From a virus, in the IMG/VR virus record IMGVR_UViG_3300046789_000012: a stretch of DNA of 47,532 bases, one strand, 5' to 3'. The notes under the pieces were generated by a model. The model ran no database searches. It was not told the origin of the DNA and was given only the letters and a program-made list of their open reading frames with translations. The translations under genes were made by a program, and so were the position numbers. Shown here piece after piece: positions 1 through 47,532 of the stretch; position 1 is the first letter of the stretch; the number at the start of each line of letters is the position of its first letter.

Positions 1-127
1 GCACATTCCGAACGTCGACATACCGGGAAATCAGCCGAACGTTGTCGACGGCATATCGCTAGCCGTCGGCGATCGCGTCCTGGTTAAAGATCAGGTCACG
101 GTCACATACGCTAACAATATTTATTCC
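1..127. repeat. Terminal overlap copy A, identical to 47406..47532 (circular closure of the contig)
   Basis: Read directly: the 127 nt gcacattccgaacgtcgacatacc...gctaacaatatttattcc occur at both window ends. The repeat lies inside an ORF whose codon phase is kept across the junction. Confidence 0.95.
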
Positions 128-8741: not shown

Positions 8742-9027
8742 ACACTCGTTCCACGTCGACTAGAACGATCGACATCACGCAAAAGCCCTCGGGCACGCCG
8801 AACACATTCCCGCGCAGCACATACGTCACGAGTGCGCGCGCCTCGTCGCCGGTGTACGCCTGCGAGTCGGGCGACCACTCTCGCAGGCGTAGTCCGTCGC
8901 CGACCTGAAAGCCCCGATCGTCCCGCCGATACTCGAACCGCTTGAGCTCGCGCCGAATGTGCTCGAACGGTTCTGGCCAGCATCGCAGCTCGTGCAGCGT
9001 GCACGGCTTCGCTTTGTTCGCTGTCAC
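8740..9027 (-). CDS. ASCH-like / DUF3850-like small protein
   Basis: 95 aa; GTGA overlap with the recombinase stop. LHELRCWPEPFEHIRRELKRFEYRRDDRGFQVGDGLRLREW fits the remembered DUF3850 pattern. Confidence 0.65.
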   Translation of the reverse strand: MTANKAKPCTLHELRCWPEPFEHIRRELKRFEYRRDDRGFQVGDGLRLREWSPDSQAYTGDEARALVTYVLRGNVFGVPEGFCVMSIVLVDVERV

Positions 9028-9980
9028 AGGCCGATCCCTTTGCTCGCGTTGTGCTCGTCGAGCAGCCGAGCGTCGCGCACGTACCTGTCGACCATCTCGC
9101 GGCCGCGCCATCGCCCTTGCTGCATGATCGCCCTGTCTGTCTTGCCAGCTGCAGCCGCCGACGTCGCGAGGCCGGAGCGCAGCGAGTGTCCCGAGTAGCG
9201 AGCGGCGTCGAGGCCGACGCGCTCGACGCTGCGCTTCACGACCTCGGCGATCGCTGCGCCTCGCAGGCCTGCGTCGAGCACTCGACCGCCGCGCGACATG
9301 CGCCGCAGCAGACGGCCGCGCTTGAGCTTCGAGAGCACAAGCCACGCCTCGAGCGCCCGCACCGGGCACGTCTGCCGGTTGCGCCCTCGAGCGACGCCGA
9401 CGCGATGGCCTTTGCCTTGCTGGTCGGTCTTACTGCGACGGATCAGCACGACGAGGCCGCCCTTTGTACCCTCGACGTCGCGCACCTCGAGCGCTGCGAG
9501 CTCCGACCGGCGCAGCGCGCCGCTCATGCCGAGCGTCAAGATCACGCGATCACGCACGCCGATCGGCGAGTCGGGCAGGGCAGCGCAGACGCTTCGTAGC
9601 TCGGCGGCAGTGAGCGGCGCGACCTGCCGCTGCGGCTGACCGTGCGTGCGGCGCACGCCTTCCCACAGGCGCTTTATCCGTGGATCGCTCGTCGGCGTCG
9701 CGTGCGTGCTGTTCACGTGCACCCACGCGATCGCCGACAGCGCGACCGATAGCGTACTGATGCTGACCTGGTGCGCGCGCTCCGTCAGCCACAGCGCGAG
9801 CGTCTCGGCAGGGCAGGGCAGCGGCTCGAGCTCGCGCGCCTCGCACCACGCTTTGAAGAGTCGCCACTGCCGAGCGTACTCGGCGAGCGTCCGCTTCGAA
9901 CGCGAGGCCGCTTCGTACTGCCTCGCGCGCTGCGCGAACAGCGCGAGCTGTGCAGGATGGGCCCGTGTGATCGCGGTCAT
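9024..9980 (-). CDS. Cre-like tyrosine recombinase
   Basis: 318 aa; RVILTLGMSGALRRSELAAL (Arg I region), YSGHSLRSGLATSAA (H-x-x-R), IMQQGRWRGREMVDRYV (W ... Y nucleophile). Co-linear with remembered P1 Cre blocks. No lambda-Int-type arm-binding N-domain. Confidence 0.9.
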   Translation of the reverse strand: MTAITRAHPAQLALFAQRARQYEAASRSKRTLAEYARQWRLFKAWCEARELEPLPCPAETLALWLTERAHQVSISTLSVALSAIAWVHVNSTHATPTSDPRIKRLWEGVRRTHGQPQRQVAPLTAAELRSVCAALPDSPIGVRDRVILTLGMSGALRRSELAALEVRDVEGTKGGLVVLIRRSKTDQQGKGHRVGVARGRNRQTCPVRALEAWLVLSKLKRGRLLRRMSRGGRVLDAGLRGAAIAEVVKRSVERVGLDAARYSGHSLRSGLATSAAAAGKTDRAIMQQGRWRGREMVDRYVRDARLLDEHNASKGIGL

Positions 9981-11911: not shown

Positions 11912-12268
11912 CTATAGCTTCGACGCGCTAGCGGCCGCCTGCCGCCGCTCTCGGCGCTCGCGATGCCAGCCGAGCCAAGCTGGGTCCAGCTGCCACACGC
12001 AGACAACGCGAACGCCATCGCCATCACGTCGACCGCGACTGCGAAAGTCTGGGAAGCGTTGAATCGCCCAACTTTCCGCCGCCCATTGGCCGGGAAAACA
12101 GGCCTCGTGTCGACCTTCGACCTCGACTCCGTCGGCGAACGCACGCAGGCCAAACATGTCCCGCACGACGCGCGCCCTCGAATACAGCACGAGCATCAGC
12201 CGCTCTGCTTCGACGGCTCGCCACTGGCGCACGAGCACCTCGACACTGTCGATTACGGGATACGACAT
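11912..12268 (-). CDS. Hypothetical protein (118 aa)
   Basis: Start taken at ATG 12268 (MSYPVIDSVE). The ORF-track start at 12403 would read through the palindromes and the TTGACA element. Confidence 0.5.
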   Translation of the reverse strand: MSYPVIDSVEVLVRQWRAVEAERLMLVLYSRARVVRDMFGLRAFADGVEVEGRHEACFPGQWAAESWAIQRFPDFRSRGRRDGDGVRVVCVWQLDPAWLGWHRERRERRQAAASASKL

Positions 12269-12291
12269 TCCCGAACGCCTACCACTGCCGG

Positions 12292-12311
12292 CGCTATAGC
12301 GTCTAGACGCT
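12292..12311. promoter_or_regulatory. Overlapping palindromes CGCTATAGCG (site 2 of 4) and AGCGTCTAGACGCT
   Basis: Read directly, 24 nt upstream of the minus-strand ATG at 12268. The 19-mer gcgctatagcgtc(t/c)agacg also occurs at 7135. Confidence 0.5.
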
Positions 12312-12332
12312 AGCTCTGCGCGTTGCTTTTTT

Positions 12333-12338
12333 CTTGAC
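12333..12338 (+). promoter_or_regulatory. TTGACA -35-like hexamer after a T6 run, pointing into the origin region
   Basis: gcttttttcTTGACAgg; no convincing -10 at 16-18 nt. A second candidate, TTGCGC-16-GAGAAT, lies at 12369..12396. Confidence 0.25.
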
Positions 12339-12430
12339 AGGTGTCCGGCCGACGGCTGTACGCTCGCGCTTGCGCGGTATCCAGAAACCGAGAGAATACG
12401 CATCTAGCTCTTAGACGCCGCATCAGAGCG

Positions 12431-12503
12431 AGATCCCGGAAATTCTCGATCCTTTCTGCAGATCCGCAGCTCAACAGAGCTGCGGAGCTCTGCAGAGCAA
12501 GAT
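12431..12503. repeat. GATC cluster (4 sites in 73 bp) in the locally AT-richest stretch, with an internal hairpin
   Basis: GATC at 12431, 12447, 12460 and 12500. ccgcagct-caacag-agctgcgg hairpin at 12463..12484. GATCTTAAG is also present at the second origin. Confidence 0.7.
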
Positions 12504-12527
12504 CTTAAGTGTTAAGCGCCGATACCC

Positions 12528-12584
12528 CCTGTCTGGAAGGGTCTTTGCCCTGTCTGGAAGGGTCCTCGGGTCTGTCTGGAAGGG
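12528..12584 (+). repeat. Three iterons CTGTCTGGAAGGGT (12528, 12549, 12571) at 21-22-bp phasing
   Basis: Three exact 14-nt copies read directly. The spacing is about two helical turns, as in plasmid iteron origins. Confidence 0.85.
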
Positions 12585-12596
12585 TGTCACCACACG

Positions 12597-12606
12597 GCGC
12601 TATAGC
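12597..12606. promoter_or_regulatory. Palindrome CGCTATAGCG (site 3 of 4), between the iterons and the DnaA box
   Basis: Exact 10-mer. Confidence 0.5.
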
Positions 12607-12615
12607 GTGGGTAAG

Positions 12616-12624
12616 CTGTGGATA
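12616..12624 (-). promoter_or_regulatory. Consensus DnaA box (TGTGGATAA, complement of TTATCCACA)
   Basis: Exact 9-mer. The 13-mer gctgtggataacc is repeated at 29133..29145. Confidence 0.7.
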
Positions 12625-12694
12625 ACCAACCAACAGGTAGGGAGTGCAGGCGCAGGCGTTTCGGCCGTCCGAGATCCGTCGGCGATCGCGTCGA

Positions 12695-13510
12695 TCAGCT
12701 CGACGACGAGACGACGTCGCCGGAAAAGCTGACGGGCAGCGCGCCGCTGCTCTGCAGCTCGGCGACTGCCGACTTCACGCGCCGCCGCACTTGGTCGCGC
12801 GGCTGTCCAGGCGCAACGCGCAGCCGAATCGCTTCGAGCGTCACAGAGGGCGCGGCTGCGAGGCACAGCTGCAGCCACTGCGCGAGCGGCCGATTGCCGA
12901 TCGTGTGCCGCTTCGACTCGGCGACGCTGACCGTCCCGAGCGCCATCATGTCGAGCATGACGTCGTTTACCCACAGCGTGACAGTCGAGTCGACCGCCGA
13001 GGCTCCGAGCAACACGCCGCCCAACGTCGTACGGCGACGCCCCTCGCGAAACCACACAGTAGTTGCAGTGAGGTCTAGCAAGAGCGACCAAAGCCCGTCC
13101 AAGTGCAGCGCGCCGCCCTTGCGACGCAAGCGCCGGTTGACCTCGTCAAGGCTAACCGTCACTCGCGCATCGGGCCCGCTGTCGCTCAGATAGCCGAGTG
13201 CGACCATCAACACGTCTGCATGCGCCTGCGTCAACACGCGCCCGTGCAGCTGATAAACGCGCTCTGCTCCATCCACGTCGACCGACCGCTCGCGCGCACG
13301 AGCTGTGCCGACGTGCGACGCAGTGAACACGTTTGCGCGAATCAGCTCGAGCGGCATCTGCAGGGTACCCGATCGGCAGCGTGGCACGCGATCGAGCGGC
13401 GCGCGAGTGAGTGCGAGTGCGCTTTCCGTAAGAGACTTGAGCTTATCGCCGGGATCTGCTTTATTCGTCATCGAATCACTGCGCTGTCTGGCAAAGGCAA
13501 GCCGATTCAT
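12695..13510 (-). CDS. Plasmid-type replication initiator (TrfA/RepA-like)
   Basis: 271 aa. The blocks LELIRANVFTAS, HGRVLTQAHADVLMVALGYL and LHLDGLWSLLLDLTATTVWF are co-linear with remembered TrfA-type initiator blocks. The gene abuts the iterons and DnaA box. Confidence 0.65.
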   Translation of the reverse strand: MNRLAFARQRSDSMTNKADPGDKLKSLTESALALTRAPLDRVPRCRSGTLQMPLELIRANVFTASHVGTARARERSVDVDGAERVYQLHGRVLTQAHADVLMVALGYLSDSGPDARVTVSLDEVNRRLRRKGGALHLDGLWSLLLDLTATTVWFREGRRRTTLGGVLLGASAVDSTVTLWVNDVMLDMMALGTVSVAESKRHTIGNRPLAQWLQLCLAAAPSVTLEAIRLRVAPGQPRDQVRRRVKSAVAELQSSGALPVSFSGDVVSSSS

Positions 13511-13618
13511 GACGCCTCGCTGCTCTAACAGTGGGGCGTCTCGCTATGGCGATCAGGCCATAACGTTGCAACTAGAGCGCGCCGAGCACCTCGGGCGCAA
13601 CAAAAATGCAAGCCGACC

Positions 13619-14326
13619 TCACACTTTACGCGCGGCAACTCGACGGCCCTGCGCGTTTCGGCGAGGTCGGCGAGGTGCGCTCGGCGCGACGCTGCGATCG
13701 GCTTCGCTCACTGCGCGCAGGTAACCGGCGACGTCAAAGCGCGTGAAGCTGACGGCCCACACCCACGGGTTACGCTCCCATTGCTCGGGCGCTTCGTGCG
13801 CTGCGTTCCATGCCTTCGCGAACGCCGCTCGGCGAGCAGGGCACTCGGCGATGCACGAGCTGTATTCCGTGTCGTGCGCAGGGCAGCTGACGCCCTCCGC
13901 GGCGTAGTCGCGCGCGCAAGCATCCTGCAGCCGCTGGCAGCGTACGTCGTAGACACGCAGCCACAGGCGCGAGGCCTTCCGCGGCAGCAGCAGCGGCGAC
14001 AGCCACTGCCGGCCGATCACGACCTCGGCTGCCGCGTCCGCTTCGTAAACGATGCGACGCTGCGCTCGAGCGCCCTCGACCTGCCATCGCTCGCGCACCC
14101 ATAGCCAGTCGTCGACGGCGCCGAACGGGCAGCCGAGCAGCACAGGCCGCGCGCCCTCGCGCCCGCACACTGCGCGCAAGTCGCCGAGTCCGTCGCGCAC
14201 CCAACCCTCGACGACGGCGTCGACAGGCGCTCGCACGACGCGCCGCAGTTGCCATTGCTCGAGCTGTGCGACTCGCCGGGCCTGCGCCCTCGACAACACG
14301 ACCGACCTGCACGCGCGCGACGACAC
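13619..14326 (-). CDS. ASCH-like prophage protein
   Basis: 235 aa. WVRERW ... YEAD ... LPRKASRLWLRVYDVRCQRLQD ... AEG resembles a widespread prophage family with a W-x-P-x-x-M-P-R-W-A-S-R ... RLQDI pattern. Memory-based. Confidence 0.6.
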   Translation of the reverse strand: MSSRACRSVVLSRAQARRVAQLEQWQLRRVVRAPVDAVVEGWVRDGLGDLRAVCGREGARPVLLGCPFGAVDDWLWVRERWQVEGARAQRRIVYEADAAAEVVIGRQWLSPLLLPRKASRLWLRVYDVRCQRLQDACARDYAAEGVSCPAHDTEYSSCIAECPARRAAFAKAWNAAHEAPEQWERNPWVWAVSFTRFDVAGYLRAVSEADRSVAPSAPRRPRRNAQGRRVAARKV

Positions 14327-14567
14327 GCGCCGACACTACCCTCGAGCTGTCCAGCACACTAGCTCGCTCGAGCGCTAGCGCGCGAGATAGCTAGCACACG
14401 CTCGAGCCTAGGCGCTAGTGTGCGCAACTCTGCGACTTTGCTTACACTTAGCCGCAACTAGTAGACCCCCACAATTCTGTAAGTCTTAGCTGAAACGCGT
14501 TCTCACTGATGCGAAGTCTATGCGAGTGTGAATCACTCGCACTCGCAGGAGTGCGGATAGGGGTGGC

Positions 14568-15122
14568 ATGCAAGGTCGCGACGACTCAAACGACCCGCTA
14601 ACTATCGAGACTGCAGAGGCTCTCGATCTGCTGCGTGAAACCGCAGCTGACCTCTGCAGGCCAACAGGCGACGAGCCGTCGCTGCGCCTGCTCGCTCTAG
14701 CGCAAGCGATCGGCGTGCCCGGCGCCCTCTGGTCGCACGAGGTCGCCGACTGGCCAGCCGAGCGCCTCGCCGGCGCCATCGCCGTCTATCTCCAAGAAGT
14801 TTACGAATGGCCTTACTCGCGCGCCGCCCTCGAGCGCGCGGCGATGCAGGCTAGCGGCTATCCCGAGCCGACACGTCGACCCGCGCTCAGGCTGGTTTGC
14901 GGCGGCGGCGAGTCGCAGCGCGCCCGGCGTCGCGAAGCTTATCGGCTGTCAATCGGCCTCCGTGAGCTTCGACATGCGTACGCGCATCAATCAGGCGCTG
15001 CGCTGTCGTTTGACGAGCACCGCTGCCGGCATGTGGTGCTTTCGTGGTGGAGCTCAGTCGAGATGGCGCACGACTATCAGGCGCGGTTAGCGACGTATTG
15101 GGCCTTTCTTCGCAGTTCGTGA
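14568..15122 (+). CDS. Hypothetical protein (184 aa)
   Basis: SD-like aggggtgg upstream. Third-position G+C about 70 percent in its last 240 nt, higher than the opposing frame there. Confidence 0.5.
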   Translation: MQGRDDSNDPLTIETAEALDLLRETAADLCRPTGDEPSLRLLALAQAIGVPGALWSHEVADWPAERLAGAIAVYLQEVYEWPYSRAALERAAMQASGYPEPTRRPALRLVCGGGESQRARRREAYRLSIGLRELRHAYAHQSGAALSFDEHRCRHVVLSWWSSVEMAHDYQARLATYWAFLRSS

Positions 15123-15552
15123 CGTACTCCGTCAGCCACTCGAGCGTTGCAGGCTTCTGTCGACCGCGTATCGCGCGCTCGACCGACTCGATCAGCGTCT
15201 GACTCGCCTCGCGATCGGCCAAGAACGCCCGCACCTCGGCGACGCCGAGCACTGTCGGCGCTTCGAGCTCGGCGAGCGCAGCCGCGCGACCCTCGGTGCC
15301 GAATAGTAAAAGCTCAATGTCCGCATCGAGCAGCAGCGACGCTCGAACGAACAGCGGGATCGTTGGCATCGACCGCTCACGATCCCAATCGTCGAGCGTC
15401 GAGCCTGACACGCCGAGCAGCGCCGCAAAGCGTATGCGCGACAGGCCCTTAGCTGCGCGCAGCGACCATAGTCGCCGCTGCACACTCGTTTCCGCGTAGG
15501 GACTGACGCCCGACTCGGGCGCTGGCTTCATCGGGACCTTGCGATAGCTCAT
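14887..15552 (-). CDS. CI-like repressor (XRE HTH N-domain, low-complexity tail)
   Basis: 221 aa; LWSLRAAKGLSRIRFAALLGVSGSTLDDWDRERSMPT. Divergent from a Cro-like gene. By hand count, third-position G+C is about 76 percent for 15125..15552 and only about 54 percent for 14887..15124. Confidence 0.7.
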   Translation of the reverse strand: MSYRKVPMKPAPESGVSPYAETSVQRRLWSLRAAKGLSRIRFAALLGVSGSTLDDWDRERSMPTIPLFVRASLLLDADIELLLFGTEGRAAALAELEAPTVLGVAEVRAFLADREASQTLIESVERAIRGRQKPATLEWLTEYVTNCEERPNTSLTAPDSRAPSRLSSTTKAPHAGSGARQTTAQRLIDARTHVEAHGGRLTADKLRDAGRAATRRRRKPA

Positions 15553-15660
15553 GCCTCGGGACCTCGGTAGCGTGTCCAGGCTATAGCGCCAACCCTATAC
15601 CGTCCGGCACGGTTTTTCTATGACGCAATTTCTCTCATACCTCGGCGCCTAAGTGTCGCA

Positions 15661-15680
15661 TGTGCTCTGATGTGCGCTGA
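15661..15680 (+). repeat. Tandem decamers TGTGCTCTGA / TGTGCGCTGA in the CI/Cro intergenic region
   Basis: Read directly. A third GTGCTGA lies at 15692. These are candidate operator half-sites. Confidence 0.4.
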
Positions 15681-15719
15681 CAGCCTGCGCAGTGCTGAAG
15701 CTTGCCCACATAGGCAGTA

Positions 15720-15729
15720 GCCTATATCG
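15720..15729 (+). promoter_or_regulatory. GCCTATATCG element (-10-like TATATC) 9 nt upstream of the Cro-like ATG
   Basis: No SD lies between it and ATG 15738, suggesting a leaderless transcript. Related CTATAGCG (15581) and CCTATACCG (15593) lie nearer the CI-like gene. Confidence 0.4.
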
Positions 15730-15737
15730 TCCCGTCC

Positions 15738-16010
15738 ATGAACCTGCGGGCGTGGGTAAAACAGGAAGGCACAGGCGCCATAACGCGCCTGCAGTATCGA
15801 TCAGGACTCAGCTATACGGCCGTTCACCGCGCCGTCAGCGGAAAGTCGCGACCGACGTACGAGAGCGCTAACGCGCTCGCTGCGGCGACCGACGGCGCAG
15901 TCACTGTCGACGAGATATTTAGGAGCGCGCGCAGGGTGAAGCGAAAGGCGCCTCGAGCTCGAGCAGCGCGCCGCCGCGCGCAGAGACTCGCCGCAGTCGT
16001 CGCCGCCTGA
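15738..16010 (+). CDS. Cro/YdaS-like small HTH regulator
   Basis: 90 aa; GAITRLQYRSGLSYTAVHRAVSG ... ATDGAVTVDEI, with a basic tail. First gene of the rightward early operon. Confidence 0.7.
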   Translation: MNLRAWVKQEGTGAITRLQYRSGLSYTAVHRAVSGKSRPTYESANALAAATDGAVTVDEIFRSARRVKRKAPRARAARRRAQRLAAVVAA

Positions 16011-16081
16011 AACCCGCGGCCGCAGCAGCGCACGCCCATTCGCGCGCCGCTGCGCCGCCGACAACGTCGTGCAGGAGGCCC

Positions 16082-17071
16082 ATGGGTACGCCGACACCTC
16101 GCCGCAGTCAACGACGCTCGATCAAGCTGCCGGACCTCTATTGGTCCGCCGACTCGCCGCTCGACGGCGTCGCTCGCGTTGTCTGGACTCAGTGCTTGTT
16201 TCTGGCACGCCCGCAGCGTGACAGTCACGCGGACAGTCACGCGCCGCCGCAGCGTGACCGTCACGCCTTAGAGCGCGACAGTCACGCGCTCGAGCGCTGG
16301 CCAGCAGCGCCGCTCGTCGACGAGAGCCTGCGCTCGCTCACGCTCGCCGACATCGCGCGCGCAGTGCAGCTCGACAGGCACCTCGTCACGCGTGCGATGC
16401 AGCAGCTCGAGCGCCTCGGCGAGGTCGCGCGAAAGCCCGACGGAACGTGGGTAGTCCTGCGCTACGGCCTGACGCAGGAGAGGCCAGACGCCGAGCGCAA
16501 GCGACGCCAGCGGGCCCGTAAAAAGCGTGACAGTCACGCGGACAGTCACGCCGATTTACCCCGTGACAGTCACGCCGCCGAGCGGGACAGTCACGCGAGT
16601 TTTCCCGCGCGCGCGCTCTTAAGATCTGAGAGATCAGAAGATCTAACAGATCTTAATACCACTACCTCACCTCTTAACTCTGACCGCGTGCACGCGCGCG
16701 AGCCTGCAGTCGAGGCGCAGCGCTGGCTAAACGAGATTCTGACAACCGCGGCTGCGACGTTCGCGCCGCCGGCGCTCGGCACCAAATGGGAGCGGCATTA
16801 TCGCTGGATAGGGCAGCGCCCGCAGCGCGAGCTCGAGCAGGTCGGCGCGCTGCTGTGCGACGCGCTGCGCAGCCGCGCCCTGCGGGCCCGGTACCTCACG
16901 CCGCAGCACCTTATGTCCTACTGGCCGCAATACGCCGCCGGCGTGCTGCCGAACGCGCCTCGCCTCGCCGCGGTCGCAGCAGTCACGCCTGCCGAGCTCG
17001 AGCAGACGGCGCTCGAGCTCGAGGCCGAGGCCGACAACAACCCGGCCTGGCTTCAAGAGGCCGCGCCATGA
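16082..17071 (+). CDS. Replication initiator (lambda O-like role) with winged-helix domain and intragenic origin
   Basis: 329 aa; AGGAGG just upstream. LTLADIARAVQLDRHLVTRAMQQLERLGEVARKPDGTWVV is wHTH-like. The gene contains 8 iterons and an AT-rich GATC island and is followed by a helicase-loader gene. Confidence 0.7.
   Translation: MGTPTPRRSQRRSIKLPDLYWSADSPLDGVARVVWTQCLFLARPQRDSHADSHAPPQRDRHALERDSHALERWPAAPLVDESLRSLTLADIARAVQLDRHLVTRAMQQLERLGEVARKPDGTWVVLRYGLTQERPDAERKRRQRARKKRDSHADSHADLPRDSHAAERDSHASFPARALLRSERSEDLTDLNTTTSPLNSDRVHAREPAVEAQRWLNEILTTAAATFAPPALGTKWERHYRWIGQRPQRELEQVGALLCDALRSRALRARYLTPQHLMSYWPQYAAGVLPNAPRLAAVAAVTPAELEQTALELEAEADNNPAWLQEAAP
16220..16287 (+). repeat. Iteron cluster A: 4 x GACAGTCACGC (16220, 16232, 16256 with one mismatch, 16277)
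   Basis: Read directly. The core cgtgacAgtcacg is dyad-symmetric. Translated in frame as RDSHA-type peptides. Confidence 0.85.
16529..16596 (+). repeat. Iteron cluster B: 4 x GACAGTCACGC (16529, 16541, 16564, 16586)
   Basis: Same internal spacing pattern (12 / 23 / 22 nt) as cluster A; starts exactly 309 nt (103 codons) after it. Confidence 0.85.
16617..16660. repeat. AT-rich island with 4 GATC sites in 30 bp (candidate DNA-unwinding element)
   Basis: cttaAGATCTgagAGATCAgaAGATCTaacAGATCTtaatacc, with GATC at 16623, 16632, 16640 and 16649. Strikingly AT-rich for this genome. Confidence 0.75.
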
Positions 17072-17721
17072 CACACGGTATGGCGCGCATTCAGGACCTG
17101 CTAAAGCGCCTGCAGCAGCAGGTCACAAGCACCGAACACGCAGCCGTGCTCGAGCACGACGCCGACCGCGCACGGCAGCAGGCTCGGCGCGACGCCCTGC
17201 TCGCGCTGCCGACGCCGCTCGACGACGAGATGCTGCGCGCCATCGAGCACGACACGCTCGAGCAGACTGTCGCGCTCGTCGCTGTGCGGCGCTTTCTCGC
17301 GCTGCGTAGCTCGCGCACGATCCTCGTGCTGCACGGCGCTACAGGCACGGGCAAGAGCGTTGCCGCGGCCGACGCTGCAGCGCGCCGAGCGCATGCGCGC
17401 TGGGCCTATCCGCGCGACCTCGTCGAGGCCTATCACAGCCGGTATTCCGAGGCGCTCGTGCGGCGGCACGCGCTCGAGCAGTGCCCGCTGCTCGTGATCG
17501 ACAGCCTCGGCATCGAGCAGGCCGACACGACGATCATGCTCGACGCCCTGGTCGGACTGCTGCCCGTTCGCGTGCGACGCCGAACCATCATCACCACACC
17601 GCTATCGCAAGCCGCGTTCCTGCGTCGCTACGCGTTCGCGCCGCTGCTGAGTCTGCTCGCGGCCTCGGCGTTCCACGTCTCGCTAAAGGCGCTGCCAACC
17701 AAAGGACCGGACCAGCCGTGA
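17068..17721 (+). CDS. DnaC/IstB-like AAA+ helicase loader
   Basis: 217 aa; ATGA overlap with the initiator gene. Walker A LHGATGTGKS and Walker B LLVIDSLG. Confidence 0.8.
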   Translation: MTHGMARIQDLLKRLQQQVTSTEHAAVLEHDADRARQQARRDALLALPTPLDDEMLRAIEHDTLEQTVALVAVRRFLALRSSRTILVLHGATGTGKSVAAADAAARRAHARWAYPRDLVEAYHSRYSEALVRRHALEQCPLLVIDSLGIEQADTTIMLDALVGLLPVRVRRRTIITTPLSQAAFLRRYAFAPLLSLLAASAFHVSLKALPTKGPDQP

Positions 17722-21125: not shown

Positions 21126-22380
21126 CTGGGCATCCACCGGCAGCAAAATCACGCCTAGCGCAGGCAAAGTCGCCGCAGGATGGACAGTCAACGAACGGCC
21201 GCCGGCCGAATGGATCAACTATCTCGACAACAACCGCGATGCCTGGCTGACGTTCCTAAACGACTGCACGCGAGGGCAGCCGATCGTCGACCTGCTGCTC
21301 AACTTCGCGAACACGGACATGTTCGCGCCGCTGATCGACGTCACGAACGCGCCGCCGGCGAGCGGCTATCGTCTCGTGCAACGCGTAGTGGTGACAGGCT
21401 CGCAGCACGTGAATGTGTATGCAGGCAACACTGCGCGACGCTTCGTGTTCAGCTACAACGCCACGTGGGGCGGCTCGAGCTGGATCTGCGAGAATGCCTC
21501 GCAGCCTGCGGTCGCCTTCGCGCTGCTCGGCGACGGATCGCAGAACACATTCGAGCTGCTTTGGCATGCCGCCACCGGCGCCACGTGGCCTGACTCGGCT
21601 TGGGGGCGCGGCAACGCGCTCGTTAACAGCTTCAGCGCTGTCGCAGGATCGTTCACCAACCTCACGGTTACGCAAGATCTCACGGTGCAGCGAGACATCT
21701 TGCTCACGCGCGACCTCACCGTCGGTAGGGGCGTCACCGTGACAGAGGACGTTCATTGCAAGAACGTAGTTGTTACCGCAGCGATCACGGCGCCTGACGT
21801 GACAGTCACAGGCGACCTCACCACGGGGCCCGTACACGTCAACTCGGCGCACTTGTACCTCGACACAGACGTCGACATCGTGCACTCACCGCCTGCTGCC
21901 GCGCAGCCGTATCGCTGGGTGTGCCAAGACCTCGGCAACCCTGCGCGCTGGCCGAGCGCAGGCTCGGTCACATACGACGGCAACTATGGATCGTGGCACA
22001 CGACGCCGGCAGGCGGCGCAGTACAGCTCGAGTTCCCGCTGCATATCCACCGTGGCACGTTGCGGATCACGGCCTATGCCGTCTGGCAGTGCGCCGTGCT
22101 TGGAGCCGTGAATAAGCTGCGGCTGTACCGATGGCCTCGCGAGTTTATCCTCGGCGGCACGCTGCTCGCGCTGCCCTCGGCTGCCGTGCAGATCGGAACC
22201 ACGCTCACCCAAGCAATCGCCACTCCGAGCGGCTGCGTGTGCGACTCGGCGACGTTTGACTACGACTTCGACCCGACGCTCGAGCGATACGCGTTCGTCG
22301 TCGAACTGCTCGACGGGACCGCTAACTATCTCTACTCCGTGCGCCTCGGCTTCGCCGACCCTGGGCCTCGCAATGGCTGA
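21097..22380 (+). CDS. Fibre/spike-like structural protein lying between terS and terL
   Basis: 427 aa. The N-terminus NWASTGSKITPSAGKVAAGWTVNERPPAEWINYLDNN resembles conserved tail-fibre N-termini (recalled). Repetitive DLTVQRD / DLTVGRG / DVTVTGD stretch. Confidence 0.55.
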   Translation: MARPPTPPTNWASTGSKITPSAGKVAAGWTVNERPPAEWINYLDNNRDAWLTFLNDCTRGQPIVDLLLNFANTDMFAPLIDVTNAPPASGYRLVQRVVVTGSQHVNVYAGNTARRFVFSYNATWGGSSWICENASQPAVAFALLGDGSQNTFELLWHAATGATWPDSAWGRGNALVNSFSAVAGSFTNLTVTQDLTVQRDILLTRDLTVGRGVTVTEDVHCKNVVVTAAITAPDVTVTGDLTTGPVHVNSAHLYLDTDVDIVHSPPAAAQPYRWVCQDLGNPARWPSAGSVTYDGNYGSWHTTPAGGAVQLEFPLHIHRGTLRITAYAVWQCAVLGAVNKLRLYRWPREFILGGTLLALPSAAVQIGTTLTQAIATPSGCVCDSATFDYDFDPTLERYAFVVELLDGTANYLYSVRLGFADPGPRNG

Positions 22381-31239: not shown

Positions 31240-32325
31240 ATGCCCGGTACCTCACTCGTCAGCACGCACACGCTAGACAGGCTCGACGCCAACCTGCTCG
31301 AGCTGCAACTCGCGCAGATCGGCCAACGACTCGACGAGGACGCATTCGCTAACGTCGTGCTCGCGATGGCGCACACGCGCGCGCAGCTCTACGGAATCGA
31401 GCGCCTCGACGCGAACGAGACTGCTTTGTTCGGGAGAGATCTCGAATACATCTCGGCGCGCCTGCGCGAGATTCACCGCCCACAGCTCAAATGGAGGCAG
31501 TTCGTGCCCGTCACGTCAGAGGCGCCCGCAGGCGCTGAAACGTGGTCCTATAAGATGTGGGACGCGCTCGGGATGGCCGAAATTGTGGCCAACTACGCCG
31601 ACGACATTCGCCGTGTCGGCGTGACCGCGCAGAAGTTCACCTACGACATCGCGACCTGGGCCCTCGGCTACGACTACACAGTCTTAGACATCGAGCGCGC
31701 TTCGATGGCAGGGGTGAACTATCAGAACCAGCAGGCCGACGCCGTGCGTCGCGGCTTCGAGCTGCGTTTCGAACGCATCGCCTCACTCGGGCAAACAGGC
31801 ACGAACATCAAGGGCCTGTTGAATCACCCTAACGTGCCCGTGATCGCGGCGACGACTGTCGGCGCTGGGTCTGCGTGGGGCGCTGGCACCAAGACGCCCG
31901 ACGACGTTTTGAAGGACATGATCGCCGCCGAGGACTCGATCGTGACTGCGACGCAGGGCGTCGAGTCGCCTGATACGCTGCTGCTTCCGCTCGCGAAATT
32001 CCGATACATCCAAAACACGCCCGTCTACACCGGCGCTGGCAGCGACCCGGAAGACACGATCCTTAGCGTGTACCTGCGCCGCAGCGCCTACGTGACTAAC
32101 GTCGACTGGTGGCTGCCGCTCGCGACCGCAAACTCGGCAGGCACAGGCGCTCGCGCGCTCTGGTATCGGCGTGACCCGCGGTACGTCCACTTCGAGCTGA
32201 CCATGCCGCCGCGCGAGCTGCCGCCGCAGACAAAGAACCTCGCGCTGTCCGTCGAGTCGTGGACTCGCGCAGGCGGCGTCTGCTGGGAGTACCCGCTTTC
32301 GGCTGTCTACATGGACGGAATCTAG
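31240..32325 (+). CDS. Major capsid protein (DUF2184-like, HK97-fold class)
   Basis: 361 aa. Position after the scaffold, size, and sequence reminiscent of DUF2184 capsid proteins that accompany DUF1073 portals (recalled). Confidence 0.8.
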   Translation: MPGTSLVSTHTLDRLDANLLELQLAQIGQRLDEDAFANVVLAMAHTRAQLYGIERLDANETALFGRDLEYISARLREIHRPQLKWRQFVPVTSEAPAGAETWSYKMWDALGMAEIVANYADDIRRVGVTAQKFTYDIATWALGYDYTVLDIERASMAGVNYQNQQADAVRRGFELRFERIASLGQTGTNIKGLLNHPNVPVIAATTVGAGSAWGAGTKTPDDVLKDMIAAEDSIVTATQGVESPDTLLLPLAKFRYIQNTPVYTGAGSDPEDTILSVYLRRSAYVTNVDWWLPLATANSAGTGARALWYRRDPRYVHFELTMPPRELPPQTKNLALSVESWTRAGGVCWEYPLSAVYMDGI

Positions 32326-34192: not shown

Positions 34193-35512
34193 ATGGCAGG
34201 ATCAGAGATCGAGGTTATCGAGCACACAGTCACAGTCGCCGACGCGACCGTGACGAAATTTGGTTTCGGCGTGCCGCTCATCGCCGTCAATCACAACTAT
34301 TGGCCGGAGCGCGTCAAGACGTTCGCCAACGCCGCCGACCTGACCAAGGCGCCCTACAACGTGCCGCAGACGTCGGCGCTCTACATCGCCGCCCGGCAGC
34401 TCAAGAGTCAGCAGCCCTCGCCGCCGACGTTCAAAGTCGGGCGCATGACGGCGGCATTCACGCAGTCGTTCAAGCTCACGCCTGCGACGCCATCGGCTGC
34501 CGGCGAACACTACACAGTCACGATCGACGCGACGAAAGTCGACGTCGTGCTGTCGCCGCCGTCGAGCTCGGCTGACGTCGTGACCGCGCTCGTCACCGCC
34601 ATCAATGCGATCGTCGACGTCACTGCGACAGGCACGACCGACGTCAACGTCGTAAGCGACACCGCGAACGCAGTGCACTCGATCAGCGGCCTGTCGGCAA
34701 ACATCACCTTTGCAGACACCACGCCCGCAGCGACGCCAGCAGCTGCGGTCGGGACCGACCTGGCTGCGATCAGGGCCTTTGACGGCGACTGGTATGCCCT
34801 CGTGATGCTCGTGCCCGGCGCTGCGTCAGTGCAAGAGGCCGCTGCGTGGGTAGAGCCCGAGCGCGCGCTCTACTTCTCGGCAACGGCCGCGAACGATGTG
34901 CCATCGTCGCTGACGACCGACATCGCGACCACGCTGCAGGGCCTCGGCTACACGCGCTCTAGCATCTGGTGGCATCCGAATCAGAGCGAGTACCTCGACG
35001 CGTCTGTCGTCGGCGCGATGCTGCCCAAGCTGCCGGGCCCGATTACGTTCGCAAACAAGGGCCTCGCCGCTGTGACAATGGCGAACCCTGACACCTCGCA
35101 GCGGGCAGCGCTCAAGACCAAGCACGCAAATTGTTACATCAACATCAAGGGCCTCGGCTTCACGCTGTGGGGGTGGGCAGCGAGCGGCAGATACCTCGAC
35201 GTCACTGTCGCGATCGACTGGTTCGACGTGCAGATCGAAGACCGAATCGTCGCGCTGCTGCGCAACAACGATGTGGTGCCCTACACAACTGCGGGCATCG
35301 AGCTCGTGCGGTCCGAGATATTCGCGCAGATCCTCGAGGGCATCGCACTCGGGATAATCGACGGCGCGCAGCCGTTCAGCGCGACCGCGCCCGCGCTCGC
35401 AACGATCGACCCGAACCTCAAGACGCAGCGCATCCTGCCCGATATGAAATACAGCTATGTGCTGTCCGGCGCGATCCACAAGGTTCGCGTAGTCGGCACT
35501 GTCCAGGTCTAA
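34193..35512 (+). CDS. Tail sheath protein (DUF3383-like)
   Basis: 439 aa. ITFANKGLAAV ... KHANCYINIKGLGFTLWGWAASGRYLDVTVAIDWFDVQIEDRIV fits the remembered sheath family. Followed by tube, chaperone and tape-measure genes. Confidence 0.8.
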   Translation: MAGSEIEVIEHTVTVADATVTKFGFGVPLIAVNHNYWPERVKTFANAADLTKAPYNVPQTSALYIAARQLKSQQPSPPTFKVGRMTAAFTQSFKLTPATPSAAGEHYTVTIDATKVDVVLSPPSSSADVVTALVTAINAIVDVTATGTTDVNVVSDTANAVHSISGLSANITFADTTPAATPAAAVGTDLAAIRAFDGDWYALVMLVPGAASVQEAAAWVEPERALYFSATAANDVPSSLTTDIATTLQGLGYTRSSIWWHPNQSEYLDASVVGAMLPKLPGPITFANKGLAAVTMANPDTSQRAALKTKHANCYINIKGLGFTLWGWAASGRYLDVTVAIDWFDVQIEDRIVALLRNNDVVPYTTAGIELVRSEIFAQILEGIALGIIDGAQPFSATAPALATIDPNLKTQRILPDMKYSYVLSGAIHKVRVVGTVQV

Positions 35513-38384: not shown

Positions 38385-39256
38385 TGCCAGACCAGCCGCC
38401 ACCGTGGACAAACGTCAGCCACCTACAGATCAACAAGCTGTGGATCGACTGCAGCGTGCGCGAGCAACACGTGCTCGGCGCGCAGTGCTCGCAGTTTGCC
38501 GTCGAGGAAGGGCCCGACATCAGCGATCACGTTCGCGATACGCCCGACGGCCTGCGCATAGAAGGCATCATCACGAACACGCCGATCGGCACGCGACCGG
38601 CCTACGACGGAGATCCCGGCCTCGTGCAGCGGTCGCTGCCGCTCACCACCGCCGACGGGCAGCCGCTCGAATTTAACCAGTTCGTAGGCTATCAGTCGCA
38701 CCAACTCGAGGGCCCGCCGAACGCTGGGTATTTCAGCCTGGTTCCGATCATCGGCGCGACGACGCTGCCGTTCACGAACTACAACGACCTACCCAAGAAA
38801 AAGCTGAACATGCTCGTCGCCGAGTATGAGTTCAAGCCGCTCGGCGTCGCCGGCTACTCGTGGCAGTACATCGCCGAAACTAACCGCGTGAAGTTCGCGC
38901 ACGACACGCTGCGCGCGACGTTCAAGGCACGGCAGCCGATCACGGTCATTACCGGCCTGCACGTCTACGAGAAAGTGATTCTCACAGAGCTCAACATCCA
39001 ACGCGACGCCAGCAGCGGGCCTAACGCGCTCATGTTCACGGCATCGGGGCAAGTGATCCGCATCGTCAAGTCGACGACAGGGCAGCCTGTCCCGTCGCAG
39101 GATCGCGCGACGCCGGCAGTATCTAAAGGCGCGCAGAACGCTGTGCCGACCAAGCCCGGCGAGGTACCAGAAAGCACGAAACACAAGGGCAGCGTCATCA
39201 CGCAGGCACTCGACGGCGCTGCAAACTGGTTCAACCAAGCGCCGCCGGAGCCTTGA
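38384..39256 (+). CDS. Tail/baseplate protein (hypothetical)
   Basis: 290 aa; 1-nt overlap with the TMP stop. Located between the TMP and baseplate hub genes. Confidence 0.55.
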   Translation: MPDQPPPWTNVSHLQINKLWIDCSVREQHVLGAQCSQFAVEEGPDISDHVRDTPDGLRIEGIITNTPIGTRPAYDGDPGLVQRSLPLTTADGQPLEFNQFVGYQSHQLEGPPNAGYFSLVPIIGATTLPFTNYNDLPKKKLNMLVAEYEFKPLGVAGYSWQYIAETNRVKFAHDTLRATFKARQPITVITGLHVYEKVILTELNIQRDASSGPNALMFTASGQVIRIVKSTTGQPVPSQDRATPAVSKGAQNAVPTKPGEVPESTKHKGSVITQALDGAANWFNQAPPEP

Positions 39257-46500: not shown

Positions 46501-47532
46501 ACCATCGACGGAATCGCGACAGCGCCCGCCGACCGCGTGTTATTGACCTCGCAGACAAGCGCGGCCGCAAACGGAATCTATCTAACCGCCGCCGGCTCAT
46601 GGGCCCGCGCAGCCGACGCTGACAGCTCTGCTGACGTCACCGCGGGCATGTACACGTTTGTCGTCGCCGGCGCAGCCAACGCAGACAGCGGCTGGGCACT
46701 CATCACGCCCGACCCGATCGTGCTCGGCACAACGCCGCTCACTTTCACGCAGGTCACCGGCGCAGGGCAGATCACCGCCGGCGCTGGCCTAACCAAGACC
46801 GGCAACACACTCGACGTCGTCGCGCATGCCGACGGCTCGATCGTCGTCGCTGCTGACAGCGTTCAGCTCGGCGTGATCGCGACCGACGCGCAGCACGGCG
46901 CTCGAGCAGGCGGCACGACGCACGCAGCGGTTATCGCCGCCGGCGCTTCCGGTTTCATGACCGGCGTCGACAAAACCAAGCTCGACGGCGTCGCTACAGG
47001 CGCAGCCGCCGTCGGCAGCACGACGCCGATAGCTGCAGACGTAACCGCGGCCGCTGCCGGCTCGGCTACCACAGCCGCGCGCTCAGACCATCGGCACCAA
47101 GTCACCGCCGGATCGCCTGTTGCTCTCACGCTCGCCGCAGCGACTGCTGACGGCACGAGCACCTCACTCGCTCGAGCCGACCACGTGCACGCGCTGCCGG
47201 CGAGCTCGACCACGCCGACCGCGCTTACCGTAGGCGGCGCAGGCTCGGCAGGTAGCTCGACATCGATATCAAAAGCCGACCACGTGCACGCGATGCCAGC
47301 GACTGCGACGACCGGCGCAGACGGCTTCATGGCGTCCGGCGACAAGTCGCGGCTCGACGCGCTCGTCGCCACCTACAAGACAGCCGTCCGAGTCGCATCC
47401 ACCGGGCACATTCCGAACGTCGACATACCGGGAAATCAGCCGAACGTTGTCGACGGCATATCGCTAGCCGTCGGCGATCGCGTCCTGGTTAAAGATCAGG
47501 TCACGGTCACATACGCTAACAATATTTATTCC
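43543..47532 (+). CDS. Tail fibre protein, N-terminal 1,330 codons (open at the window end; continues at 128)
   Basis: ATGA overlap with the upstream gene. Hand translation of frame 1 from 43543 to 47532 showed no stop. Contains repeated beta modules, GF(M/Q/L)SAxDKxKLDG motifs and DHxH motifs. Not listed in the ORF track because it lacks a stop inside the window. Confidence 0.85.
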   Translation, partial: MSITLTFNQPGAGIPAGSVDRGRTDIKSTGAIGDTRAYPVTITIGNIPATATVDVLLLDEPPESNPLLTELAPETWQLDFDTGCWGPFRVRVTATINDAVVGSVTRRISIRSPGYHIDYPALAERYDPNATAVPTVPSVELTEMNEGSTNRPLVDFHRQLLEAIEGTSGGGGGVIPDGSITEDKLAPELSDNLLRADGTIPFTQDQDAAGHTVGNLGTPTLAGDAVPLWYVQTSFALSGIHMPCRLVATTPVTASNTQVIDGKSTVNGQRILLTAQASPIDNGLYVANDAGAWLRAPDADTSAELMPGLIIFATDGTAYAETGWILASDAPIAIGTSPLTFARFTGAAQVVAGAGLTKNGDTLDVVAHADGSIVVAADSVQVGVLASDAQHGARAGGTQHAAATTAVAGFQSAADKLKLDGVATGAAALASSAPASVGTANAVGAGTTAARSDHVHAHGAQADGTLHAAATTTVAGFQSAADKLKLDGVATGAAALTSSAPAAVAFTGAVGVGTTAARSDHVHAHGAQTDGTLHAAATTTVAGFQSAADKLKLDGVATSAAALSANAPTQITVTTAAVGVETAAAKGDHTHSVSIGAPSALAVGGAQNTGSATSLPRSDHQHAMPDVATTSVAGFLSASDKTRLDGMATGAAALTSTAPVAVDNAAAVLGVGTTAARHDHKHTVSIGTPVALAVGGASGQGSATTLTRSDHTHGLPSLVTTSVDGFMAAADKLKLDGVEAGAQVTSFARVQTALAAATGSVSFNAQRITSVADPSATQDVVTRGYLETLAGTFDAKPSCRLVTTTNITLSGLTAIDGITPSGSDRILVTGQTTASANGLYTAAVGAWARATDADTSAKVSAGLTVRVNEGTLGADTLWILTTNDPITLGTTGLVFAQAPSTADKTKIDGIEAGAQVVTFARVQTALGVASSAVSFNSQKITNVLDPTSNQEVATKAYVDAIAQGLDVKTSVRLVATTNVATLSGSQTIDGIATAPADRVLLTSQTSAAANGIYLTAAGSWARAADADSSADVTAGMYTFVVAGAANADSGWALITPDPIVLGTTPLTFTQVTGAGQITAGAGLTKTGNTLDVVAHADGSIVVAADSVQLGVIATDAQHGARAGGTTHAAVIAAGASGFMTGVDKTKLDGVATGAAAVGSTTPIAADVTAAAAGSATTAARSDHRHQVTAGSPVALTLAAATADGTSTSLARADHVHALPASSTTPTALTVGGAGSAGSSTSISKADHVHAMPATATTGADGFMASGDKSRLDALVATYKTAVRVASTGHIPNVDIPGNQPNVVDGISLAVGDRVLVKDQVTVTYANNIYS
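44740..45342 (+). repeat. Three in-frame tandem 201-bp repeats (67-aa units) inside the fibre gene
   Basis: Unit starts at 44740, 44941 and 45142. Long stretches are identical (gtcgccgggttccaatcggcggccgacaagctcaagctcgacggcgtcgc at 44761, 44962 and 45163). The third unit diverges in its second half. Confidence 0.9.
47406..47532. repeat. Terminal overlap copy B, identical to 1..127
   Basis: Same 127-nt string as the window start. Confidence 0.95.

Follow-up and report, generated by a model that had tools for sequence, protein, structure and literature searches.

The principle of an origin of replication lying within the gene for its own initiator is known from phages and plasmids. In bacteriophage lambda, ori-lambda (bases 39034-39160) is in gene O and comprises four 18-bp iterons and a 38-bp AT-rich region, while Stx phages have six iterons and 13 residues added to O (PMC3349717, PMC7466680). 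In phage SPP1, oriL is in gene 38, with repeats named 'AB boxes' and an unwinding element, and the loader and helicase genes adjoin (PMC6316719, PMC5737612). P1 oriL is in repL and includes an essential AT-rich stretch (PMC9948254), and the origin of plasmid pSK41 is central in rep, where the encoded peptide is dispensable (PMC5703833). Synonymous recoding has been applied to the iterons of Stx phages (PMC7466680) and to P1 repL (PMC9948254). Each of ori-lambda, SPP1 gene 38, P1 repL and pSK41 rep has a single in-gene array located after the DNA-binding part. The sequence of a soil-type phage, IMGVR_UViG_3300046789_000012 from IMG/VR (47,532 nucleotides (nt), one strand, 5' to 3'; here called the window) was found to carry a gene for a 329-amino acid (aa) initiator that contains two arrays, one on each side of the region coding for the DNA-binding domain. 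It seems likely that positions 16217-16680, which include both arrays and an AT-rich island, are the cis-acting origin of a lambda/SPP1-type replication module inside its own initiator gene. A search limited to open-access text gave no account of two arrays inside a gene on either side of the segment that codes for the DNA-binding domain, and what is new is this split, in an uncharacterised initiator family. The elements of the module are as follows.

16082..17071, plus strand: initiator gene, 329 aa, containing both iteron clusters and the AT-rich island
16217..16287: iteron cluster A, encoding aa 46-69 (RDSHADSHAPPQRDRHALERDSHA)
Cluster A sites: dyad 16217-16229, half-site 16232-16242, dyad 16253-16265 (centre C), one-mismatch dyad 16274-16286
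16307..16477, plus strand: coding region of the winged-helix core (aa 76-132), between clusters A and B
16526..16596: iteron cluster B, encoding aa 149-172
Cluster B sites: dyad 16526-16538, half-site 16541-16551, dyad 16562-16574, one-mismatch dyad 16583-16595
16616..16680: AT-rich GATC island, proposed DNA-unwinding element, 30% G+C, stability z = 5.1
17068..17721, plus strand: AAA+ DnaC/IstB/DnaI-like helicase-loader gene, 217 aa, with an ATGA overlap with the initiator gene

The module is an initiator plus helicase-delivery cassette of the lambda O-P or SPP1 38-39-40 kind, and the lambda-like layout of iterons, AT-rich region and loader gene that had been proposed originally is present in the sequence. 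As in lambda, the candidate origin is in the initiator open reading frame (ORF), where the encoded peptide is not needed for DNA binding (PMC3349717, PMC7466680), imperfect inverted-repeat iterons are grouped four per array and followed by an AT-rich region of about 40 bp, and the next gene would deliver the host DnaB helicase. As among lambdoid and Stx phages, iteron number differs between relatives and alters protein length (PMC3349717, PMC7466680). However, lambda has one array downstream of the DNA-binding-domain part, whereas the two arrays of the window phage bracket a winged helix-turn-helix (wHTH) core, and the 18-19-bp iterons of lambda are replaced by 13-bp dyads and half-sites. The window protein is below the threshold of any lambda-O model (phrog_391, 'replication initiation O-like', was the only one approached, E 1.7e-4), and its loader is of the AAA+ DnaC/IstB type, not of the lambda-P type.

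Likeness to SPP1, in which G38P is the initiator, gp39 the loader and gp40 the helicase, extends to an initiator that is probably of the replisome-organizer type, as judged from the Phage_rep_org_N and PHROG matches of relatives, and to an initiator gene that contains repeats and an AT-rich unwinding element and is followed by the loader gene (PMC6316719, PMC5737612). In a repeat scan of SPP1 gene 38, the repeats and the lowest G+C content were confined to the sequence past the wHTH-coding part. SPP1 differs in having one in-gene array and a second G38P-bound site (oriR) about 13 kb away, whereas both arrays of the window phage are in the gene, 309 nt apart; the window phage encodes no helicase beside the module, and profile comparison of the family with G38P (hhalign) was not significant (E 0.084). 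The iteron origin of pSK41, a RepA_N plasmid, is likewise in the rep ORF, between the wHTH N-terminal and the C-terminal domains (PMC5703833), and RepA_N N-terminal-domain structures are the top, weak, Protein Data Bank (PDB) fold matches of the window protein. Differences are that pSK41 is a Firmicutes plasmid with a single central array, no sequence-level family match and no dedicated loader gene after the initiator gene.

Two iteron clusters in the initiator gene

Seven exact copies of GACAGTCACGC occur in the window, at 16220, 16232, 16277, 16529, 16541, 16565 and 16586, against 0.12 expected, a number that none of 100 shuffles reached. An eighth site at 16256 (GACCGTCACGC) differs by one mismatch, so that the count of eight sites given in the original prediction was correct. 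Six of the eight are contained in the 13-nt dyad CGTGAC-N-GTCACG, four of these perfect (16217, 16253, 16526 and 16562) and two with one mismatch (16274 and 16583), in agreement with the earlier statement that most sites are dyadic. The copies at 16232 and 16541 are half-sites, each placed 12 nt past a complete dyad. When up to one mismatch is allowed, the window has 8 dyads, with 0.36 expected.

The sites form clusters A and B, in both of which successive sites start 12, 24 and 21 nt apart, and B is offset from A by exactly 309 nt. The clusters share a 28-nt unit (16215-16242 and 16524-16551) with 100% identity, whereas the sequences that separate the sites are not the same in A as in B. All sites are in frame in the initiator ORF and are translated as RDSHA-like peptides at aa 46-69 and 149-172. 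The predicted pair of clusters, with common spacing, the 309-nt offset and in-frame peptides, was confirmed in these respects. It had further been described as a symmetric pair around the wHTH-coding region; the bracketing holds and the symmetry does not, as A and B are direct duplicates and not mirror images, and cluster A is within the coding region of the N-terminal domain, after the conserved N-terminal helix.

Across the genome, clusters of GTCAC/GTGAC are limited to A, B and two groups of three pentamers (95-155 and 34580-34640), these groups being within chance expectation; only A and B are strongly enriched. Two near-dyads in ORFs of the structural region, 21798-21810 (CGTGACAGTCACA) and 31503-31515 (CGTGCCCGTCACG), are also compatible with chance. 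A function of the dyads as repressor operators was considered and rejected, no copies being present in the cI/cro-type intergenic control region. No sigma-70-like promoter was detected in 15400-17300, so a reading as intragenic promoter or operator is unsupported, and no Rfam family was detected in 12000-17500. A terminator-like hairpin with 6 pairs and a 3-nt loop is scored on the minus strand at 16525-16539, where TTTTT comes after the first cluster B dyad; it could end antisense transcription that runs into the gene, or could result from the AAAAAG codons in front of the dyad.

Conservation of the iterons in related loci

Homology searches yielded 9 metagenomic proteins and 10 IMG/VR loci, the DNA of which was compared with the window. 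Three clades were distinguished by their aa identity to the window protein, approximately 64-73%, 40-44% and 26-30%, and codons were counted in 14 related loci of the three clades (26-73% aa identity). Two clusters of dyads and half-sites are kept at equivalent positions of the gene in all 15 loci examined. Clades 1 and 2 read the motif as (R)DSH(A), and the peptides RDSHxDSHA and ERDSHA are conserved in both. AGT is the Ser codon in every one of 86 copies of the motif, although it accounts for 3.8% of Ser codons in the genes of the window, and the preceding Arg codon is CGT in 40 of 46 against a background of 8%; the other motif codons are GAC (71/71) and CAC (86/86). In distant pairs the motif codons are identical in 90-100% of cases, as against 50-65% at other conserved residues (Fisher p down to 2e-4). 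In cluster A of clade 3 the same dyad is found in another reading frame, GTG ACT GTC ACG, giving VTVT. The scrambling of synonymous codons that had been named as a check on DNA-level conservation was therefore not seen: AGT is invariant and the dyad withstands a change of frame.

A full hidden Markov model search yielded 182 relatives, and DNA was obtained for five deeply divergent ones (L019-L023). Scans of IMG/VR for the distant relatives P0013, P0017 and P0033 gave no match, and DNA was obtained by exact look-up instead. These relatives have dense arrays of the GTCAC/GTGAC core, or of its inner GACAGTC, in other arrangements: GCGTCAC-N-GTGACGC in L019, CGTGAC-AA-GTCACG in L020, GTGACGGTCACGGTGACG in L021, GTGACG every 12-18 nt in L022 and TGACAGTC in L023. 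The arrays are in several frames, even inside one gene, and the encoded peptides (VTSH, RHGD, DGHGD, ERHGDASRDG) are unrelated. Because synonymous codons are frozen and the dyad is kept across frames and unrelated peptides, the dyads CGTGAC-N-GTCACG and the half-sites are selected as DNA, with the encoded peptide a passenger.

Of the eight lineages included in the comparison of architecture, all have the C-side cluster (B) and six have the N-side cluster (A). In these six the two clusters are 294-370 nt apart around the wHTH-coding region, the distance being set by the length of the wHTH segment. Seven lineages have a low-G+C purine-rich tract, usually with GATC, that begins no more than about 20-30 nt past the C-side cluster; the purine-rich GATC tract is found in clades 1 and 2, L019, L020, L021 and L023, and in L021 and L022 the G+C content of the tract falls only to 0.47. 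In clade 3 (L003, L005, L015, L016 and L017) cluster B consists of AGTCACGC half-sites repeated at 12-nt intervals (gene nt 520-600), and the lowest-G+C stretches are 380-540 nt upstream, in the control region.

The AT-rich island and the loader gene

The island (TTAAGATCTGAGAGATCAGAAGATCTAACAGATCTTAATA) starts 20 nt past cluster B, and its GATC sites at 16623, 16632, 16640 and 16649 are 8-9 nt apart. The 40-mer from 16619 has the lowest G+C content (30%) and the lowest nearest-neighbour stability (z = 5.1) of the whole genome, which substantiates the AT-rich stretch with four GATC sites noted previously at this place. A 17-nt inverted repeat, TTAAGATCTGAGAGATC / GATCTAACAGATCTTAA (16619-16635 / 16640-16656), lies within it. 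Over codons 179-198 the G+C content at third codon positions is 0.20, compared with 0.77 for the whole initiator gene.

GATC is over-represented in the window as a whole (320 matches where 229 would be expected; none of 100 shuffles had as many as 320), and thus the host or phage does not avoid it. The second least stable 40-mer is at 85-135 (47490-47532 onwards) and has GTCACGGTCAC, GTGAC 25 nt later and a GATC. This site could be a weak secondary initiator site, comparable to oriR of SPP1, although three pentamers in 60 nt are within chance expectation.

The DnaC-like loader that the original prediction placed next, with an ATGA overlap, was recovered: the ORF 17068..17721 matches phrog_50 'DnaC-like helicase loader' (E 2.6e-10), and its translation is probably coupled to that of the initiator gene by way of the overlap. 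The order of initiator gene and loader gene is the same in all close relatives. In L021 (439-2633) a gene for a DnaB-family helicase directly follows the initiator gene, in place of the DnaC-like loader, which shows that helicase-delivery partners have been shuffled around the origin-containing initiator gene.

The initiator protein

The AlphaFold (AF2) model of the 329-aa protein has a mean predicted local distance difference test score (pLDDT) of 64 and three confident parts: an N-terminal helix (aa 29-41), conserved in the family, the winged-helix core (aa 76-132) and C-terminal helices (aa 200-290) forming a helical domain. The core is composed of E76-79, H88-95, H99-111, E115-117 and E123-125, with pLDDT 80-87, and coincides with a sub-threshold MarR-type wHTH at aa 84-121 (Pfam MarR_2 match at aa 86-121). 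Both peptide regions encoded by the iterons are predicted to be disordered with pLDDT <50, that of cluster A at aa 46-73 and that of cluster B and the island in the interdomain linker at aa 156-204. The iterons are placed where the ORF codes for linkers that are predicted to be disordered and that tolerate changes of sequence, and the domain plan typical of replisome organizers, namely wHTH, disordered linker and helical domain, is present in the model.

The best matches of a BFVD fold search were replisome organizer and replication initiation proteins (E down to 2.4e-5), and phage 'replication initiation and membrane attachment' and DnaD-like proteins were matched as well. Among 30 family members, 7 match Pfam PF09681 Phage_rep_org_N (best E 5.2e-7), which the window protein itself does not; phrog_391 is matched by 2 and phrog_345 by 1, and many match PHROG replisome-organizer, replication-initiation or DnaD-like families. 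The window protein has no match to the Pfam O family (Phage_rep_O or equivalent), and a PDB sequence search with the family profile gave nothing significant (best E 0.029, a 66-aa wHTH). The protein is probably a winged-helix member of the phage replisome-organizer / O-like initiator superfamily, and the AF2 wHTH and BFVD matches uphold the earlier description as an initiator-type wHTH protein.

Genome context and a second replication module

The exact overlap of 127 nt between the ends of the window (1-127 = 47406-47532) shows that an entire phage genome of about 47.4 kb has been assembled as a circle. Terminase and tail genes are also in the genome; the terminase had only distant matches, giving no information on the host. 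A search of 185,579 GTDB species genomes gave no relative of the initiator, and hence neither a clue to the host nor an integrated copy, and the module has no DNA or protein similarity in any of 50,697 deposited phage genomes. Other features are:

9024-9980, minus strand: tyrosine recombinase (phrog_1 integrase, E 3.5e-16)
14887-15552, minus strand: CI-like gene
15738-16010: Cro-like gene
12695..13510, minus strand: Rep-like protein, 271 aa, no family match
12527-12586: three direct repeats CCCTGTCTGGAAGGGTC, 21-22-nt period, about 110 nt past the stop of the 271-aa ORF
Repeats in relatives: L009 2003-2068; L007 2191-2256; L013 2197-2240; L012 1299-1354

A low-confidence model of the 271-aa protein (pLDDT 55) matched best RctB domains 2-3 (E 1.8e-4), RepE54 (3e-4 to 6e-4) and a Rep WH1 domain. 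At the corresponding position, relatives have 22-nt tandem repeats, two or three in number, with different sequences, a variation that suggests a Rep protein co-varying with its cognate iterons. The other origin which the original prediction placed near 12.5 kb is plausible, by these fold matches and repeats, as a plasmid-type Rep and iteron module and a possible plasmid-prophage origin. A link between the two modules had been seen in AGATCTTAA. The motif is indeed present at 12500 (+), 16619 (-) and 16648 (+), but three matches compare with 1.75 expected at up to one mismatch, and in relatives it is found only in the initiator gene and not at the 12.5-kb-type module, so that the proposed meaning was rejected. 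As there is a plasmid-type Rep module and no initiator relative in the GTDB genomes, the tyrosine recombinase might be a Cre/Xer-like dimer resolvase and not an integrase.

The window phage thus probably carries two replication modules, as P1 does, with one origin inside an initiator gene (PMC9948254) and the other consisting of a plasmid-type Rep and iterons; in the window phage the latter is the RepE/RctB-like protein with three 21-22-nt iterons. The proteins of the two phages are not homologous, and the two arrays of P1 belong to the plasmid replicon and are intergenic. In that replicon, oriR-repA, the iteron arrays incC and incA are on both sides of repA and are used for control.

Discussion

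The site arrays and the AT-rich tract are functional DNA; they are located where a gene of an initiator family codes for linkers, and a loader-like gene lies downstream. In the model favoured here, the dyads would be iterons bound by the encoded winged-helix protein as dimers, and the core origin would consist of cluster B and the purine-rich GATC island about 20 nt downstream. Initiator oligomers on B would strain the DNA such that the island opens as unwinding element; the AAA+ DnaC-like loader, product of the next gene, would then be recruited by the C-terminal helical domain and would deliver DnaB helicase of the host to the opened DNA. The accessory half of a bipartite origin would be cluster A, which lies 309 nt upstream. 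Bridging of the two arrays by bound initiator, as in split oriC, could turn the wHTH-coding spacer of about 240 bp into a loop. The initiation complex would be stabilised in this way or, when the initiator is abundant, both initiation and transcription of the initiator gene would be throttled.

Such an arrangement recalls the bipartite oriC of Helicobacter pylori (oriC1-dnaA-oriC2) and the DnaA-box clusters flanking dnaA in Bacillus subtilis, where two site clusters are separated by initiator-coding DNA, and an unwinding element adjoins the downstream cluster only (PMC3479198). In H. pylori, DnaA loops oriC1 and oriC2 together, and looping by the initiator between clusters is the proposed mode (PMC3479198); for the window phage we infer it. 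The bipartite oriC differs in that its clusters are intergenic, flank the whole of dnaA and have DnaA as initiator, whereas those of the window phage are in an ORF and flank the DNA-binding-domain segment only.

Several points weigh against the assignment as an origin. Binding of the dyads by the 329-aa protein we infer only from their co-occurrence. The protein is below every curated Pfam and NCBIfam threshold, and its PDB fold matches, topped by the RepA_N N-terminal domain, are weak (E 0.04-0.07, from a model of pLDDT 64); the loader has NCBIfam matches to IstB (E 1.9e-7) and to DnaI (E 1.8e-4) that do not attain the curated cut-offs. The putative recognition helix varies by clade (DRHLVTRA, PRHQVQHA, TSRQTKRA) while the dyad is constant. 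Clade 3 has cluster B but no AT-rich tract in the gene, and its unwinding element may have moved or be dispensable. L019 and L023 are without cluster A. Lastly, the plasmid-type Rep and iteron module at 12.5 kb could be the origin in some phases of the life cycle.

Since A is missing from L019 and L023, it is not essential to the mechanism of the family, and its loss in these two lineages argues that it is accessory. The same observation, with B and its tract forming a module in seven of eight lineages and the AT-rich island adjoining B only, is what an alternative would predict in which the origin is cluster B and the island and A is a negative-control or autoregulatory locus, acting by titration, by handcuffing or looping in cis, or by blocking RNA polymerase. 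Cluster A would then be to B as incA is to incC in the plasmid replicon of P1, or would resemble the control iterons found in F and R6K. For P1, F, R6K and bipartite oriC, negative control by looping or handcuffing between separated clusters of initiator sites has been discussed (PMC3479198), and the extra distal iterons of Stx phages are weakly bound and yet affect replication (PMC7466680). However, A equals B in site composition and in the 12/24/21 spacing, its DNA is conserved just as tightly, no sequence feature separates positive from negative roles, and in H. pylori initiation needs both halves of the split origin (PMC3479198). Cluster A may stimulate or limit initiation; a role mainly as control locus is possible though somewhat doubtful, and an accessory role in a bipartite origin is favoured.

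The invariance of the dyad beside a changing recognition helix could also be expected of a conserved external binder. On this account a host factor or another phage protein would bind the dyads for early-operon transcription, recombination or packaging, and replication would start from about 12.5 kb, where the Rep-like protein and the 21-22-nt iterons are located (12.5-13.5 kb), or elsewhere; the over-representation of GATC in the genome would be in keeping with it. We regard this as improbable, given that the arrays travel with the gene family across very divergent phages at the same places of the ORF, that the cI/cro-type control region has no copies and the genome no other strongly enriched cluster, that neither a sigma-70-like promoter nor an Rfam family was detected in the region, and that the succession of sites, AT-rich tract and loader gene is the canonical layout of an origin (PMC3349717, PMC5737612).

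Selection for the RDSHA-type His/Asp-rich peptides themselves (e.g. as metal-binding segments or flexible linkers), with the DNA repeats arising incidentally from recent duplication or gene conversion, would account for RDSHxDSHA and ERDSHA in clades 1 and 2 and, through conversion, for the identical 28-nt unit, but it is contradicted by the comparative data and highly improbable, because AGT (86/86) and CGT (40/46) persist against a strong opposite codon bias while other synonymous sites have diverged, the dyad becomes VTVT in clade 3, the GTCAC core of distant relatives gives unrelated peptides in several frames and even in one gene, the inter-site spacers have diverged and the sites have not, and the iteron-encoded peptides are predicted to be disordered.

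The bipartite origin model can be joined with the second module in a wider reading that we consider rather unlikely: a widespread family of uncultured high-G+C phages would have a truly bipartite in-ORF origin, in which initiator oligomers on A and B loop out the DNA of their own DNA-binding domain, so that firing is coupled in cis to shut-off of initiator transcription as a self-limiting switch, and would also have a plasmid-type replicon, with separate maintenance and lytic origins as in P1. If true, the family would be a natural case of one DNA code, the GTCAC arrays, kept through several frames and peptides.

The split array is conserved across deep divergence in an uncharacterised initiator family of uncultured high-G+C phages, and it offers a concrete origin candidate for a phage group without a cultured member, useful for replicons, for vectors and for the interpretation of coverage peaks in metagenomes. 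It is an unusually clean case of overlapping codes, in which an array of sites is kept while the peptide changes with the frame, and in-gene origins could be found computationally through frozen rare codons and frame-independent motif conservation. The idea of the bipartite origin, with looping between site clusters, would be extended by it from chromosomes and plasmids to the in-gene origins of phages.

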